A stretch of DNA of 64,000 nucleotides, taken from sequence record OR924452, one strand, 5' to 3'. The translations under genes were made by a program, and so were the position numbers. The notes under the pieces are model-generated. The model made no database searches. It was not told the origin of the DNA and saw only the letters and a list, made by a program, of their open reading frames with translations. Of this stretch, positions 34,469 through 43,003 are shown one piece after another (the stretch's first letter is position 1; each line of letters begins with the position of its first letter). The DNA comes from Escherichia phage 241.

Positions 34469-34497
34469 AACAGAGGCTATAATGGCCTCTGTTTTTG
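34469..34497 (+). terminator. rho-independent terminator
   Basis: CAGAGGC-TATAATG-GCCTCTG hairpin followed by TTTTTG. Confidence 0.6.
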
Positions 34498-34515
34498 TAT
34501 TCTAGAGAGGATACC

Positions 34516-35739
34516 ATGAAAGATAAACCGTGTGACATTCCTTATTGCGGTGTTCGGGAAACCAAAATTAAATCTGCACACCCCACGTTAAGTCCATTCC
34601 ATAAACAACTCGCATACGAATGGATGAGTGAGCGCTATAAGATCCACGTGAGAAAGGACGTCCAACGTCTTCCTGCTCCTTGGACGGATAATCCCATACT
34701 ACGGCAGGTCAAGTTCTGTAACGTCCGGAGAGAGCACGACAGGCAGTCTCTTAACCTGATCAACAATATCGTCAAGAACGATGCTCTGGGCATGGCCGAC
34801 AAGATGTTCAACTGTGTTCTGTTCCGCATGTTCAACCTCTGGGACCCGATCAAGGCTATCGGTGACGCTCGTACTATCAAAGAGTTCGCAAACATCGATC
34901 TTGATGCAACCCGCAAAAGTCTTCAGGAATTTGAGGCCAACGGTGGTAAGATCTTCACCAATGCCTTCAACACAGGCGGTCTAAAGCAGTGTCTGGCGTT
35001 CCCCGAACTCGTTGTCAACCACAAGGAGCAGCGCTTTGGTGGTATGATGGTTAAGGTACACCGTGTTGGCCAGGGTATCGTTGATGAATTGGATTACAAG
35101 GTCGCCAAGAAGCTGGTTGAAGAAAATCCTGGGGAGTACACGATCGAGGGCTGGGAGCCGTACATGCCGATGCGTGTTATCCGTTCCCTGAAGGCATTTG
35201 TCAACAAGTATCCTGATTATTTCAATGATCTTTTACGTCTTGACTCTCCGCTGAAAGTTTACCAGCGCATGTATGACGACATTGAAGGGCTTGGGCCATT
35301 CCTGGCATATCAGATATGGGTGGACTTCACATACATCCCTGAGTATCCATTCAGTGAGAATCACTTCACCATCGCTGGCCCAGGTTGCCGTGCGGGTATT
35401 GACCTGATGTTCCTGGATAAGGACGGTATGACTCATGAAGAGTGCATCTTCTGGGTTCGAGATCACCAGTATCAATTGTTTGCCCAGTATGGTTATGTCC
35501 AAGAGCAGTTCTGGTCAGCCGAAGCGCCGGAAGATCAGTGCATGAATGTCATGCAGCTGGAGAACATGTTCTGTGAATTGAGCAAGTACACCCGCTGTGT
35601 TGAGGCTATTGAGAGAGGGGAAAAGCCACGCGGCAAGGTCGGTTACGATGGAGGCGGAGAATACAAAAAGCGGTGCGATGAAGTTGTCCTTAAACGCGGT
35701 TCCGTCAATTTGTTAGATCGTTTGAAGAAACCTGAATAA
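34516..35739 (+). CDS. hypothetical protein (407 aa), Cys-rich
   Basis: ATG 34516 with GAGAGGATA RBS; no family assignable by inspection. Confidence 0.5.
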   Translation: MKDKPCDIPYCGVRETKIKSAHPTLSPFHKQLAYEWMSERYKIHVRKDVQRLPAPWTDNPILRQVKFCNVRREHDRQSLNLINNIVKNDALGMADKMFNCVLFRMFNLWDPIKAIGDARTIKEFANIDLDATRKSLQEFEANGGKIFTNAFNTGGLKQCLAFPELVVNHKEQRFGGMMVKVHRVGQGIVDELDYKVAKKLVEENPGEYTIEGWEPYMPMRVIRSLKAFVNKYPDYFNDLLRLDSPLKVYQRMYDDIEGLGPFLAYQIWVDFTYIPEYPFSENHFTIAGPGCRAGIDLMFLDKDGMTHEECIFWVRDHQYQLFAQYGYVQEQFWSAEAPEDQCMNVMQLENMFCELSKYTRCVEAIERGEKPRGKVGYDGGGEYKKRCDEVVLKRGSVNLLDRLKKPE

Positions 35740-35851: not shown

Positions 35852-37873
35852 ATGGCAGAATTTAAACCTTTCGCAACGGCTGTTAATGATAACGTGCTGG
35901 CGATGTCCGCAACTGGTCTGTTCATGACCAACGTTGATAAAGATGCTCTGTGGGATTTGTATTTGGCATCCTTCCCAGCTGGTACCAACCCGATGTACCG
36001 CGAACGCACTGAACACGACTGCACCTGCTGTAAACAATTCATCCGTAATATCGGCGGCGTCGTGACTATCGATGCTGACCTGAACGTTATCTCGATTTGG
36101 GACAACATTGAGCTGGGTAACGAATACGATGTGGTCGCGGCGGCGTTATCTGCATATGTCAAACAACACGCAATCGTTGATGTGTATTTCAACGATTCTG
36201 CTAAAGTCGGCCTGTCTCATAACCACGAATCTGGTGAAGACGGCAAAATCCGCACGTATAACCATTTCCACACAGAACTGCTCGGCAGCTATGTCCTGCG
36301 TTCTGATGCTATCGCATCTAAAAAAGGTGAAATCCGACAGGCTATCGAATTATTTGAACGCGGTCTGCGTGAAATTACTCTGGAATCAGCAGAAATCGTT
36401 CTGGAATTGATTGATCAGAATTCTTTGTATCGCGGTGCTGAACATAAAGCTGCGGTGATGGGCTTCGTAGTAGCCAAGACGGCATATGAAGAAATCCCAG
36501 AATCTAACCGTTCTCTGTGGGCATGGCGCACTGGTTATCGTTCAAACAATCATGTTCCACATGGCATTCGCAACACCGTTATCGGTACTCTGTTGACGGA
36601 TATCAGTGAAGGCGTGGAACTGGAAAAGGCCGTTAAGTCGTTTGAAACCAAAGTTGCCCCAGCGAACTACAAACGCCCGACGGCTCTGGTCTCCAAGTCC
36701 ATGATCGAAAACGCTCAGAAAGAAGTGATTGCTCTCGGTCTGGAAGATTCGCTGGCGCGTCGTTATGCAGTTTATGACGACCTGACGATCAATAACGTTC
36801 TGTTTGCAGACCTGGCTGCTCAAAAAGCGATGGATCCATTCGCTCAACTGGCCGCCGAAGTGAAAACGCCGACCAAGTCTCTGGATAAAGTTGAAGAGAT
36901 TGGCATTGATGACTTCCTGAGCAATATTCTGCCGAAAGCGCATTCGATGGAAGTGCTGGTTGAAAACTCGCATACTGGCAACCTTATGTCTCTGGTCGCT
37001 CCGGCTATTGCAGGTGCTCCTAACCTTTTCAAATGGGGCAACGGTTTCTCATGGTCATACAACGGCGAAGTGGCCGACTCCATCAAAGAGCGTGTGAAAG
37101 CGGCTGGCGGTAAAGTCGACGGGTTCCTCCGTGTATCCCTGGCCTGGCACAACAACGATGACCTCGATCTGCATATGTTCTTTAACAATATGGAACATGT
37201 GTACTTCCGCGATCGTCGTTCAATGACTGGTGCTCATCTCGATATCGACATGAACGGTATGGACGGCATCGACCCGAACCGCTCTCCGGTAGAAAACATC
37301 ATCTTCACTGATGAAAGAAAGTTGCGTGACGGTGAATATCGTTTTGAGATTCACAACTACAACCAACGTGAAAAGATCGACGAAGGGTTTGAAATTGAAG
37401 TTGAATACAAAGGCGCTACGCAACGTTTCAGCCACAATGGGTTAAAAGACCAGGGGCGCATCACTGCCGTCGTTCTGACTGTTAAAGACAAACAAGTCGT
37501 TAGCATCAAGTCTGAGCTGGCGAATGTTGATAAATCCAAAGAAATTTGGGGCATTAAGACAGCGACCTTCCAGAAGGTACAGCTGGTCCTGAACTCACCA
37601 AACCATTGGGATGGTGAACAAACTGGCAACAAGCACGTCTTCTTCATCTTGGAAGGTTGTGCGAATCCTGAAGGTACTCGTGGTTTCTACAATGAATATC
37701 TGAAGCCGGAACTGGATAAACATCGTAAGGTTTTTGAAATGCTGGGTAGTAAAATGAAAGTACAACCCAACGAAAACCAACTGTCTGGTCTGGGGTTCTC
37801 GACAACGCAACGCAACCATGTGTTCGTCAAAGTGTCCGGCGCGTTTAACCGTACTGTAAAAGTCATTTTCTAA
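35852..37873 (+). CDS. hypothetical large protein (673 aa)
   Basis: Long ORF with GGAAGA RBS; conserved-looking HDCTCC motif near N-terminus; no family recognised. Confidence 0.6.
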   Translation: MAEFKPFATAVNDNVLAMSATGLFMTNVDKDALWDLYLASFPAGTNPMYRERTEHDCTCCKQFIRNIGGVVTIDADLNVISIWDNIELGNEYDVVAAALSAYVKQHAIVDVYFNDSAKVGLSHNHESGEDGKIRTYNHFHTELLGSYVLRSDAIASKKGEIRQAIELFERGLREITLESAEIVLELIDQNSLYRGAEHKAAVMGFVVAKTAYEEIPESNRSLWAWRTGYRSNNHVPHGIRNTVIGTLLTDISEGVELEKAVKSFETKVAPANYKRPTALVSKSMIENAQKEVIALGLEDSLARRYAVYDDLTINNVLFADLAAQKAMDPFAQLAAEVKTPTKSLDKVEEIGIDDFLSNILPKAHSMEVLVENSHTGNLMSLVAPAIAGAPNLFKWGNGFSWSYNGEVADSIKERVKAAGGKVDGFLRVSLAWHNNDDLDLHMFFNNMEHVYFRDRRSMTGAHLDIDMNGMDGIDPNRSPVENIIFTDERKLRDGEYRFEIHNYNQREKIDEGFEIEVEYKGATQRFSHNGLKDQGRITAVVLTVKDKQVVSIKSELANVDKSKEIWGIKTATFQKVQLVLNSPNHWDGEQTGNKHVFFILEGCANPEGTRGFYNEYLKPELDKHRKVFEMLGSKMKVQPNENQLSGLGFSTTQRNHVFVKVSGAFNRTVKVIF

Positions 37874-39960: not shown

Positions 39961-42177
39961 ATGATTGAATCATTAACATTTAAAAATGCGGTAGCAACCG
40001 TCGCGCCGTCTAACCATGTAATCGTTGTGGATATCTCCGGTTCCATGTACCGTTCACTTCCTGAAGTTCGCAAGCATCTGAAGGAAAATCTCCCGTCTCT
40101 GGTTAAACCAGAAGATACCGTCAGCATTCTTTACTTTTCATCCCGTGGTGATTTCGGTACGGTATTCGCTGGCCGTCAGATCAATAGCGCGACCGATCTC
40201 AGTGAAATCAATAAACTGATTGACCGCTTCCTGCAACCGTCCGGTTGTACGGGATTTGTAGAACCTCTGAAGTTGGCTGCTGAAACCGCGTTGAGCCTGA
40301 ACAAACCTGGTTATGTCAATAACCTGGCGTTCATGACCGACGGCTATGACAACTGCTGGCGCTCGAATGAAATTCTGGCAGCAGCTGAAGTACTGCCCAA
40401 GGCGTTCGATAATATTACATTCATCGAATATGGCTGGTACTGTAACCGCGAACTTCTGGCCCTGATGTCCGAGCGTTCTGGCGCGACTCACGTGTTTGCC
40501 GAAGGTCAGACTGAATATCAGACCGAACTGGAAAACGTACTGAAATCATCTACGCCGAAAGTGGTTGTTGATGTTCCCCTGGTTTACACTCATGCCATTT
40601 ACGTTGAAAACGGCGTGGCAACTGTGCTAGCCGTACAACCCGATGAAGAACACCCGATTGGCCACGTCAGCATCCCTGAAAGCGTTTCTCAGCTGTGGGT
40701 TGTAAACCCTGACATGATCGACCAGCTGGATAATCTGGCAGACACCCAGGCGGCATACGTGCTGGCATTCTATGGCGTGTACACCATGGACGCCGATCTG
40801 GTCTGGGCCGCGCTGAAGAAGACGGGTGACGTCCGCTTCATCAAACAATACAGCAACTGTTTCACCAAGCAGGACTATTCCAACATCAAAGTCGATCTGA
40901 CCCAGGCTATCGTGGATGAAACTCTGCGCGGCGTAGATGGCATCGATTACAATATGGTTCCAGCTGAAGATGCAACGACCATTGTTGATGTCTTGACCTA
41001 CCTGGCCGAAGCCGATGTCTCTGTTGTCACTAAGCATCCGCTGTTCTCTTACAACAGCATCGGTCGCGGTACTGTGCAGAAAGTTGATGACACTGAAGAC
41101 AAGCTGGCTGAACAAATCGCCGAAGCCAAAACCAAAGCAGAGCGTAAAGCGCTGGCTCTCAAACTGGCTGAGCACGAAGATTGGACGCCGGAATTTACTC
41201 CGGTTGATGACAAAGGGATTGTCCCAATTAGCAATCTGGTCTACAATTCAGAGCGCCCTAACATCAGCATTCAGACCGTTCAGCATGGGACGGTTGTTGT
41301 GCCGGAGTTCGTACAGAAGAAATATGAACTCCCTGAAGAACTGGGAACCTGGCGTTATCGTAATTACACCATCGTCAAAGATGGAATCATCAACCTGAAG
41401 ACGATGCCGATTACTGCCGAATCTCCGATTGTCCGAGCTAAGGTTGTCCAAGATTTGATCGCCATGGGCGTTAATGTATTTGGTGGACCGGAAATCTTCA
41501 TCGTTAATTTAGAAAGTGTTCCGATGGTCAACCGCGCCATGACCAAGAACATCAGTGCTGCCGAATTCTTCGCTGACAACGTTCGTCGCGAAGCGCTGAA
41601 GGCAAAACAGAAAGTTCTGAAATTCTATCGTGATGAACTGGTTGGCAAAGGCAATGCAACTGGTCTGGCTTCTAAATATGGTAAAGAAGCCGCCGATTTC
41701 TTGTCGGCAAATGGCATTCGCGACTACGGGTTCTCGCCGAAAACTACTTCTGTGGAATCAACCGATGTCTACATGAGCCGTGAGCTGAATGTGAAAATCA
41801 AAGGTGCTTCGTCGCTGCCGAGCATTGCGTCAGTTATCAAAAAGCAAGCAGATGGTAAAAAACTGAATGTCGCTGATCAGTTGATTGCCAATGCTCTGGC
41901 CGAATACGACGCTTTTGTTAAATCTCCAATGATCACCAGCGTACCTGAAGAGACTCAGAAAAAGCTGATTGAAAGCTGGATCGGAGACGCAGCAAAAGCG
42001 GCCATTAACGAAGTCCGCGCCCTGAACAAAACGCTGTCTAAAGTCGTTTACGGCATCGTCGCTGGTCATGGTTGGTTCACTGATTTGGATCTGGAAGAGT
42101 CTACGATGGATGTAGAAGTTGATGGGGTGAAATACACCGTCACTGCCGAACTGGCCGAAAAAGAAATCAAAATCTAA
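39961..42177 (+). CDS. von Willebrand factor type A (vWA) domain protein with long C-terminal extension
   Basis: MIDAS motif VVDISGSM (DxSxS) and downstream MTDGYDN; ATG 39961 preferred over upstream GTG 39925. Confidence 0.65.
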   Translation: MIESLTFKNAVATVAPSNHVIVVDISGSMYRSLPEVRKHLKENLPSLVKPEDTVSILYFSSRGDFGTVFAGRQINSATDLSEINKLIDRFLQPSGCTGFVEPLKLAAETALSLNKPGYVNNLAFMTDGYDNCWRSNEILAAAEVLPKAFDNITFIEYGWYCNRELLALMSERSGATHVFAEGQTEYQTELENVLKSSTPKVVVDVPLVYTHAIYVENGVATVLAVQPDEEHPIGHVSIPESVSQLWVVNPDMIDQLDNLADTQAAYVLAFYGVYTMDADLVWAALKKTGDVRFIKQYSNCFTKQDYSNIKVDLTQAIVDETLRGVDGIDYNMVPAEDATTIVDVLTYLAEADVSVVTKHPLFSYNSIGRGTVQKVDDTEDKLAEQIAEAKTKAERKALALKLAEHEDWTPEFTPVDDKGIVPISNLVYNSERPNISIQTVQHGTVVVPEFVQKKYELPEELGTWRYRNYTIVKDGIINLKTMPITAESPIVRAKVVQDLIAMGVNVFGGPEIFIVNLESVPMVNRAMTKNISAAEFFADNVRREALKAKQKVLKFYRDELVGKGNATGLASKYGKEAADFLSANGIRDYGFSPKTTSVESTDVYMSRELNVKIKGASSLPSIASVIKKQADGKKLNVADQLIANALAEYDAFVKSPMITSVPEETQKKLIESWIGDAAKAAINEVRALNKTLSKVVYGIVAGHGWFTDLDLEESTMDVEVDGVKYTVTAELAEKEIKI

Positions 42178-42183
42178 ATCTAA

Positions 42184-42210
42184 TTGGCGGGGAAACCCGC
42201 CTTTACTTTC
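42184..42210 (+). terminator. hairpin terminator
   Basis: GGCGGG-GAAA-CCCGCC hairpin followed by TTTACTTTC. Confidence 0.5.
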
Positions 42211-42215
42211 AGGAA

Positions 42216-42533
42216 ATGAATATGAGCAACAAACCGACTTATGTTGATGTCATGCGCGATTTGGCCCAATACGCATGTGACAACCTGAACATGGAAACTT
42301 GGCGCAACGGCGATCATAAAGAAAAGTTCGATAATATCGACGACAACATCGATGCGTTGGCTCCTCTTCGGGCCAAGAGCGATCTCGGCGGTGATGATCT
42401 TGACATGATTGAACTCATCATGGAAGTTGAAGAACAATATGATGTTGAAATCAGTGATGACTGGGTAGGCAAACATGGTGATGATCCCACGCTCGGCGAA
42501 TTAGCTGAATTGGTAGTTGCCCTCCGCAAATAG
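42216..42533 (+). CDS. acyl-carrier-protein-like protein with Asp in place of the phosphopantetheine-attachment Ser
   Basis: LGGDDLDMIELIMEVEEQYDVEISDD resembles ACP LGADSLDTVELVMALEEEF...IPDE but has DDL instead of DSL; start may be 42222. Confidence 0.5.
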   Translation: MNMSNKPTYVDVMRDLAQYACDNLNMETWRNGDHKEKFDNIDDNIDALAPLRAKSDLGGDDLDMIELIMEVEEQYDVEISDDWVGKHGDDPTLGELAELVVALRK

Positions 42534-42537
42534 CAGA

Positions 42538-42566
42538 AGTCCCCAACAAACCGTTGGGGATTTTTA
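42538..42566 (+). terminator. rho-independent terminator
   Basis: CCCCAAC-AAACC-GTTGGGG hairpin followed by ATTTTTACTTTT. Confidence 0.65.
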
Positions 42567-42655
42567 CTTTTAGGGGGTTTACTCTAGAGAAAGGATACCC
42601 TATTATCCAATAACACCAAACGTCGGGTTTGGTATTTGAAATGAAGGAATATAAT
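42556..42655 (+). repeat. direct repeat copy A (promoter plus 5' leader), about 100 bp
   Basis: GGGGATTTTTACTTTTAGGGG..TTTAC...CCTATTAT..CAATAAC shared with copy B. Confidence 0.6.
42577..42606 (+). promoter_or_regulatory. sigma70-like early promoter (-35 GTTTAC, -10 TATTAT)
   Basis: GTTTAC, 17-18 nt spacer, TATTAT; within repeat copy A. Confidence 0.45.
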
Positions 42656-42874: not shown

Positions 42875-42892
42875 GATACCAAATAACAGAAA

Positions 42893-42925
42893 TCCCCAAT
42901 AATTTATTGGGGATTTTTACTTTTA
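42893..42925 (+). terminator. rho-independent terminator
   Basis: CCCCAAT-AATTT-ATTGGGG hairpin followed by ATTTTTACTTTT. Confidence 0.6.
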
Positions 42926-43003
42926 GGGGTTTACTTCTTCTAACGAATATCCTATTATTCAATAACTGGCTAACGTGGGGTTGGCTAGAAAAGGAGATAC
43001 AAA
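42909..43003 (+). repeat. direct repeat copy B (promoter plus 5' leader)
   Basis: Imperfect copy of 42556-42655. Confidence 0.6.
42929..42958 (+). promoter_or_regulatory. sigma70-like early promoter (-35 GTTTAC, -10 TATTAT)
   Basis: Within repeat copy B. Confidence 0.45.

Follow-up and report, generated by a model that had tools for sequence, protein, structure and literature searches.

A conserved acyl carrier protein-like protein of Ackermannviridae phages with an acidic residue at the phosphopantetheine attachment site

In hundreds of deposited phage genomes, one small gene bears the label “acyl carrier protein” and is counted among the auxiliary metabolic genes. The window analyzed here, a stretch of 64,000 nucleotides from Escherichia phage 241 (record OR924452), encodes such a protein, in which the serine that receives phosphopantetheine in acyl carrier proteins (ACPs) is replaced by aspartate. 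What could a protein built like a carrier do for a virulent phage when the attachment site has been lost? In the full-text literature we found annotation-level mentions of the gene only, and no study of the substitution in these phages, no transcriptome timing the gene, and no characterized phage ACP mimic.

The gene and its relationship to acyl carrier proteins

The first-pass annotation had called the product ACP-like because of the segment LGGDDLDMIELIMEVEEQYDVEISDD (residues 57 to 82), which resembles helix II of ACP. The Pfam profile PF00550 (PP-binding) matched the protein with 30.4 bits (gathering cut-off, 20.8; E = 4.8e−7), over profile positions 25 to 67 only, and the match to PP-binding_2 was below threshold. 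The profile of PHROG 4154 (“acyl carrier protein”) aligned residues 3 to 105 on its positions 1 to 108 (E = 1.8e−55). A phmmer search of all PDB sequences matched more than 100 chains, which were exclusively acyl carrier proteins. The top match was the ACP of B. subtilis (E = 7e−7), where DLGgDdLD was aligned on DLGaDsLD. Smith-Waterman alignment with E. coli AcpP placed the attachment residue Ser36 opposite D61. The AlphaFold2 model, built from 20 homologues, had a pLDDT of 77 and a pTM of 0.70. When this model was compared with the PDB using Foldseek, the top 20 matches were all ACPs, with probabilities of up to 0.99 and a target-normalized TM score of 0.72, but with E values of only about 0.08. 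Phage ACPs were matched in the viral structure set (BFVD).

With PF00550 above threshold and solved ACPs matched at about 1e−6, the similarity is well beyond chance and not spurious, and the structure prediction points the same way, since the model retrieves ACPs alone. The fold evidence is moderate, given the pLDDT of 77 and the Foldseek E values. Its sequence and its predicted fold both place the protein in the ACP/PP-binding superfamily.

The features of the locus are collected in Table 1. The second in-frame ATG is the probable start of the gene, because orthologues begin with MSxKPTY and the gene of phage bering is annotated in this way; the Vi01 annotation of 105 aa probably includes two residues too many. 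The sequence AGGAA lies 5 to 6 nt upstream of this second ATG (42222), and the first in-frame ATG is at 42216. Asp and Glu account for 26 of the 105 residues. The GAT codon of Asp61 is at least two substitutions away from every serine codon, so the aspartate is not a sequencing slip. The N-terminal region is about 25 aa longer than that of AcpP, lies outside the Pfam match, and carries a conserved KPTYVEVMRxLAQYAxxNLN helix.

Table 1. Features of the ACP-like gene and its neighborhood in the 64,000-nt window
Feature	Coordinates (strand)	Product or residues	Basis or remarks
ACP-like ORF	42216..42533 (+), stop codon included	105 aa	pI 4.1, net charge about −16
Probable true start of the ACP-like gene (second in-frame ATG)	42222 (+)	103 aa	
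N-terminal region of the ACP-like protein	42222..42365 (+)	about 50 residues	Predicted helices 9-23, 26-30, 34-39, 41-48
Loop and helix II (“recognition helix”) equivalent, DLGGDDLDMIELIMEVEEQY	42381..42440 (+)	residues 56-75	Family alignment
GAT codon opposite the phosphopantetheine-attachment Ser (Ser36, mature E. coli AcpP)	42396..42398 (+)	Asp61	HMMER, pairwise, and MAFFT alignments
W-x-G-x-x-G-D-D-P-T-x-G motif, before the last helix	42462..42497 (+)	residues 83-94	Family alignment
Small ORF overlapping the VWA start codon	39798..39968 (+)	56 aa	Part of a conserved three-gene order
VWA gene, N-terminal VWA/MIDAS domain (DISGS)	39961..42177 (+)	738 aa	Pfam, PHROG 2426
GC-rich stem-loop GGCGGG-GAAA-CCCGCC, between the VWA stop codon and the ACP-like ribosome-binding site	42186..42201 (+)		10/10 orthologous loci
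Hairpin and T-run (intrinsic-terminator-like), just 3' of the ACP-like stop codon	42535..42571 (+)		Comparable hairpin in 8/10 orthologous loci

The 4.5 kb around the gene share 98% identity with Salmonella phages SJ2 and Vi01 and match 264 phage records, whose retrieved taxonomy is Ackermannviridae (e.g., Kuttervirus). Judged by this similarity, the gene belongs to the genome of a Vi01-like (Kuttervirus) virulent myovirus. Two records with other host names, OR844942.1 (Enterococcus phage Efm 3-10) and MN871475.1 (Pseudomonas phage Pa-sanjiao), carry the Kuttervirus gene with 96% and 89% protein identity, respectively; it looks as if their host labels were wrong or the samples mixed.

Conservation of the docking helix and fate of the attachment serine

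The protein was found by tblastn in 271 phage records, in 270 of them with at least 80% coverage. The sole match outside the Ackermannviridae type was Brevundimonas phage Bajun (42% coverage). A word-indexed search of 5.8 billion proteins returned 19 clusters, and a HMMER profile search of 1.84 billion representatives added about 10 full-length relatives (E ≤ 1e−10), beyond which the matches grade into ordinary ACPs. The resulting family alignment comprised 34 distinct sequences (34 to 100% identity) from Kuttervirus, Agtrevirus, Limestonevirus, and Taipeivirus, a divergent copy from Miltonvirus, and metagenomic relatives.

The attachment serine is replaced throughout this family: the corresponding column contains Glu in 26 sequences, Asp in 8, and Ser in none. 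The first-pass reading of an aspartate at this site is thus right for this phage and fails as a family rule, Glu being the usual residue; what is conserved at residue 61 across the alignment is “acidic”, not “Asp”. A Ser-bearing orthologue, which would have spoken against the substitution as a family trait, was not found down to 34% identity, and only unrelated phage ACPs have the residue. These keep DSLD, as seen in ORF97 of Vibrio phage ICP1, the ACP of Brevundimonas phage Bajun, and a gut-phage contig, which indicates that the loss of Ser is lineage-specific and maintained.

The rest of helix II is retained. Residues D60, L62, I65, E66, M69, and E72, the equivalents of D35, L37, V40, E41, M44, and E47 in AcpP, are identical in all 34 sequences, and D63, E73, F/Y75, I79, and D81 (D38, E48, F50, I54, and D56 in AcpP) are nearly invariant. 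In AcpP, D35, E41, and E47/E48 form ion pairs with AcpS (bioRxiv 10.1101/2025.01.28.635281), and mutation of positions including M44, F50, and I54 abolishes binding of SpoT, MukB, FabZ, FabA, and PlsX or destabilizes the fold (PMC3340395). The conserved set of the phage protein covers both the AcpS ion-pair residues and these mutation-sensitive positions. A further motif, W..G..GDDPT, is specific to the family, with no counterpart in canonical AcpP or in the divergent Miltonvirus copy (W83 in 31 of the 34 sequences, G85 in 31, D89 in 32, D90 in 31, P91 in 33, and T92 in 32).

Between pairs of orthologues, dN/dS ranged from 0.06 to 0.31 (Nei-Gojobori), and at least 16 positions are invariant or nearly so across the 34 to 100% identity range. 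One peptide retrieval was reported for gp186, the orthologue in phage Sajous1 (PMC10892097). Taken together, these ratios, the conserved positions, and the peptide indicate that the gene is real, functional, and under selection. The loss of the defining catalytic residue might have suggested a functionless, decaying remnant of a captured ACP gene, but given the selection, the peptide, and an ORF that is intact in 271 phage records, the probability of this is negligible, and the conservation data refute gene decay for practical purposes. At the level of sequence comparison, selection is shown to retain the docking helix together with an acidic side chain at the attachment site.

Similar substitutions were seen in other lineages. 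ACP-like proteins with Asp or Glu at the site (GVDDLD and GADELD) are encoded on two unrelated phage-like contigs and one cellular-looking contig (L008 6001-6249, L010 6001-6297, and L009 6001-6420). On the phage-like contigs, one of the genes lies among RNR, ThyA, and Gam-like genes and the other near ThyX. We drew no frequency of Ser-less ACP-like proteins from these searches, because the query profile favors such proteins, but the sequences suggest that the switch from Ser to an acidic residue may have arisen more than once. A common neighbor of these genes was considered and rejected: the overlapping gene is Mu Gam-like in L008, and its counterpart in L010 is unrelated. No relatives of the metagenomic Ser-less protein P0083 were found in cultured phages.

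The known phosphopantetheinyl transferases, such as AcpS and Sfp, require a Ser hydroxyl at the N-terminus of helix II. With Asp or Glu in its place, the protein should receive no 4'-phosphopantetheine by the known Ser-O-phosphodiester chemistry, and the earlier statement that it cannot be phosphopantetheinylated is borne out by the absence of Ser from the site in all 34 family sequences. No alternative Ser modification site is conserved in the family (S55 is mostly Lys and S4 is variable). A tblastn search with E. coli AcpS as the query revealed no AcpS-type gene in any Ackermannviridae record; the same search found a genuine phage acpS in Microcystis phage MaAM05. Host phosphopantetheinyl transferases could serve in principle. 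No acyl or lipid functions are annotated near the gene, nor does a recent study of Vi01-like phages by annotation and proteomics list any acyl-transfer or synthase function in its annotation tables.

A protein that is still a carrier, modified elsewhere or by a non-canonical carboxylate chemistry, would fit the conservation of T92 and of K6/K54 and the filing of the protein by Pfam under PP-binding. However, T92 is the ordinary N-cap Thr of the last ACP helix in the family alignment, the known transferases demand the helix II hydroxyl while the family has no conserved Ser, and the AcpS-like gene and the acyl-transfer and synthase annotations are all missing in these phages, so that a residual carrier is very improbable. 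As far as sequence analysis allows, it is established that the protein is not a carrier. The GenBank name “acyl carrier protein” is, on the same grounds, right about the fold and wrong about the function, because the protein cannot carry anything. Many of the genomes mislabeled in this way are those of phages considered for therapy or biocontrol of Salmonella, E. coli O157, Klebsiella, and Dickeya.

The locus and the candidate partners

The gene lies in a region of replication, nucleotide metabolism, and takeover functions, with genes for a sliding clamp, a clamp loader, RegA, an NTP pyrophosphohydrolase, a 5-hmdU DNA kinase-like protein, a ParB-N-like protein, and spanins. The kinase-like gene (34495-35739; PF18723, E = 2.7e−83) is of the thymidine-hypermodification pathway. 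It adjoins a gene for a 673-aa protein (35852-37873), whose orthologues carry DUF8224 and which some records name “putative DNA-directed RNA polymerase”, without Pfam support. In some relatives, a phosphoribosyltransferase and NAPRTase-family pair of the NAD salvage or reconstitution type is found just upstream of the block described below (L003 3027-5542 and L005 2987-5502); in the window, the pair is absent from this position.

The ACP-like gene follows the small ORF and the VWA gene, the latter at a distance of about 40 nt, and this order is kept in Kuttervirus, Agtrevirus, Limestonevirus, Taipeivirus, and metagenomic relatives down to 34% identity. We compared the spacer between the VWA and ACP-like genes in 10 orthologous loci (the window plus L002-L005, L007, and L016-L019). 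The arms of its stem change in a compensatory manner (GGCGGG/CCCGCC, GCCGGG/CCCGGC, and GGGGGC/GCCCCC), and the stem-loop could adjust the ratio of the two proteins as an intercistronic attenuator or as an RNA-stability or processing element. The 63-nt stretch with the terminator-like hairpin after the ACP-like stop codon had a predicted folding energy of −25.5 kcal/mol (RNAfold); such a terminator would make the ACP-like gene the last of its transcription unit. From the conserved spacer stem-loop and this downstream terminator, the VWA and ACP-like genes appear to be co-transcribed.

A cassette is repeated downstream, at 42535-42606 and 42890-42958. It consists of a CCCCAA..TTGGGG hairpin, TTTTTACTTTTAGGGG(G)TTTACT, a 17-nt spacer, and TATTAT. 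Its sequence is suggestive of a terminator and, after it, a phage promoter, an arrangement that recurs between the small genes here. The hairpin/TTTTTACTTTTAGGGG cassette downstream of the ACP-like gene is conserved in most orthologous loci.

The small ORF itself contains “GVDSLD”, and its position is conserved; in phage Guerrero, it is labeled “putative acyl carrier protein”. The possibility that it supplies a complementary Ser-bearing piece was rejected. It has no Pfam match and its Ser is variable (S, C, T, or N, or the motif is absent), so the annotation in Guerrero is probably wrong and the motif a coincidence.

The VWA protein was found in 486 phage records, including the T4-like Slopekvirus (KP15 and Miller), Shewanella phage Thanatos-1, Pseudomonas phage pf16, and Bacillus phage AR9. 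Its MIDAS residues (DxSxS...T...D) are nearly invariant over the whole VWA family, and for its C-terminal part of about 540 aa we found no informative structural relative. Within 2.5 to 3 kb of the VWA gene, no ACP-like ORF was found in KP15, Thanatos-1, pf16, or Tedavirus (Ackermannviridae). In Miltonvirus KNP4, a Serratia phage, an ACP-like protein of 90 aa is encoded three ORFs downstream of the VWA gene (L014 5570-5842). It has “NFDELD”, with Glu at the Ser site, and is of canonical length, lacking both the N-terminal extension and the GDDPT motif; the record is unannotated.

Considering all these data, the ACP-like protein is most likely a protein-binding mimic or adaptor. Having permanently lost the capacity for 4'-phosphopantetheine, a protein of the ACP fold would work as a docking module. 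Made among replication and host-takeover genes, it would present the acidic face of helix II (D60, D63, E66, E72/E73, and D81, with M69) in the way ACP does, and the carboxylate of Asp/Glu61 would occupy the place of the holo-ACP phosphodiester, imitating the surface and the charge of the carrier while the reactive arm is absent. The first-pass suggestion that the acidic residue mimics the phosphoserine holds in one respect, since an acidic residue is selected at the site (Glu or Asp in 34 of 34 sequences); this is consistent with a phosphodiester mimic but does not prove it. What we infer is the docking through helix II, the mimicry of charge, and, most of all, which partner is bound.

Several partners can be envisaged. 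The protein could be directed at the host, as a decoy that binds the basic ACP-docking sites of host ACP clients and acts as a dead-end competitor of AcpP, a reading that we consider possible and put forward only tentatively. Candidate targets would be AcpS, PlsB, LpxA/LpxD, and the Fab enzymes, as well as the non-lipid clients MukB, SpoT, and IscS; a decoy of host lipid synthesis, as the first-pass annotation proposed, would be plausible. Its alternative, a structural ACP-fold protein, may apply as well, since a partner within the phage, the adjacent VWA protein, is about as plausible as a host one. Apo-ACP arrests growth and is a stronger inhibitor of PlsB than holo-ACP, although SpoT was reported not to bind apo-ACP (PMC3896788), so some clients need the pantetheine arm that is missing here, which counts against a decoy. 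The best PDB matches, moreover, are Bacillus-type rather than enterobacterial AcpP, and there is no sign of a close tailoring to the host. Strong conservation is also seen in parts peculiar to the family (the N-terminal 50 aa, W83, and GDDPT), for which a generic AcpP decoy would have no use; these parts suggest a dedicated partner, and the conserved place downstream of the VWA gene points to a partner in the phage. The protein might then be an accessory subunit or adaptor of the 738-aa VWA/MIDAS protein, co-transcribed with it and docking via helix II. In integrin I-domains, an Asp or Glu of the ligand completes the coordination of the MIDAS metal, and by analogy the acidic residue 61 might do so here. 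A partnership of this kind would account for the three-gene order kept in four cultured genera and in distant metagenomic relatives, for the compensatory changes in the spacer stem-loop and the terminator after the ACP-like gene, for the near invariance of the MIDAS residues, and for the family-specific surfaces of the ACP-like protein; both proteins were also detected in Sajous1 preparations, with one retrieval each (PMC10892097). Yet gene order is conserved throughout these genomes, which makes the adjacency weak evidence. The VWA protein is also far more widespread than its putative subunit and keeps its MIDAS where no ACP-like gene is nearby, the ACP-like gene of KNP4 is three ORFs away, and the Ser-less ACP-like genes of other phage contigs have no VWA neighbor. 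We put this assignment forward just as tentatively.

A general polyanionic mimic, for example of nucleic acids, that sequesters a DNA- or RNA-binding host or defense protein by its charge of −16 is improbable. The pI and the number of acidic residues would suit it, as would the DNA-metabolism neighbors, which two other Ser-less ACP-like genes share (one lies next to a Mu Gam-like gene, the other near ThyX). Small acidic DNA mimics of viral origin are also known to target MukBEF, an AcpP-binding complex (Cell 2025, PMC7617805). The charge does not, however, exceed what ordinary AcpP already has (−15), which makes it an inherited trait and not a novelty. The invariant residues coincide exactly with the docking positions of ACP instead of forming a periodic, phosphate-like array, and the neighbors of the other Ser-less ACP-like genes are mutually unrelated.

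Host ACP clients and the phage VWA protein are about equally defensible as partners, and both are plausible. We slightly prefer the host clients because the universal ACP docking residues, including the AcpS ion-pair set, are all preserved, because unmodified ACP potently inhibits PlsB and growth, and because the gene sits among takeover genes. A broader proposal would be that Ackermannviridae, and independently other phages with D[D/E]LD proteins, deploy a viral holo-ACP mimic that jams or hijacks an ACP-dependent hub of the host, with AcpS, PlsB, and LpxA (envelope lipid synthesis) or MukBEF, SpoT, and IscS as candidate hubs. This is speculative and on the unlikely side; if true, it would mean that a virus targets the ACP interaction network by mimicking the carrier itself, the first such case.

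Whatever the partner, the switch from Ser to an acidic residue with an intact docking helix amounts to a natural experiment on which ACP partners can be bound when the pantetheine arm is missing. Should a host ACP client be the target, the protein would represent a new mechanism of host takeover and, ready to hand, a protein that inhibits an essential network of antibacterial targets (AcpS, PlsB, and Lpx). If it is the phage VWA protein, the ACP-like protein would give a first handle on a large and widespread phage protein.

Comparison with known carriers and mimics

The phage protein shares with bacterial AcpP (PF00550) homologous sequence, the small acidic helical bundle, DxLD at the start of helix II, the full acidic docking set of this helix, and equivalents of the stabilizing F50 and I54 (Y/F75 and I79). 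It differs from AcpP by Asp or Glu at the Ser position, by about 25 extra N-terminal residues, and by the W..G..GDDPT motif, and its gene is carried by a virulent phage without lipid, polyketide, or NRPS genes around it. The proteins of ICP1 (ORF97) and Bajun, which belong to PHROG 5934, are likewise small phage homologues of ACP with the same GenBank product name. They have DSLD and could be phosphopantetheinylated by host enzymes, whereas the PHROG 4154 family never has the Ser.

By analogy, the closest functional precedent is the apicomplexan mitochondrial ACP. In P. falciparum mACP, the Ser is changed to Phe, and the protein binds Isd11-Nfs1 without phosphopantetheine (bioRxiv 10.1101/2021.04.13.439690; PMC8547962). 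Both proteins have the ACP fold, have lost the Ser while remaining essential or conserved, and retain the glutamates of helix II. In mACP, the carrier has become a purely protein-binding subunit and the substituted residue adds to the interface. The replacement is nevertheless different, since mACP has a hydrophobic Phe with a co-evolved pocket, while that of the phage protein is strictly acidic and preserves the charge of the holo form. The apicomplexan protein works in a eukaryotic organelle with an LYR-protein partner, whereas no LYR-like partner is evident in the phage, and each lost its Ser independently.

Apo-ACP and AcpP(S36T) are also ACPs without the prosthetic group and provide a functional precedent for the decoy reading. 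They are artificial or transient states of a host protein, whereas in the phage a dedicated gene encodes the protein, which has diverged and bears a carboxylate at the site. Finally, T7 Ocr and gp5.9 resemble it as small, strongly acidic early phage proteins that occupy a site meant for a host macromolecule. They have other folds and mimic DNA rather than a protein cofactor, so that the likeness is one of mechanism, without homology.
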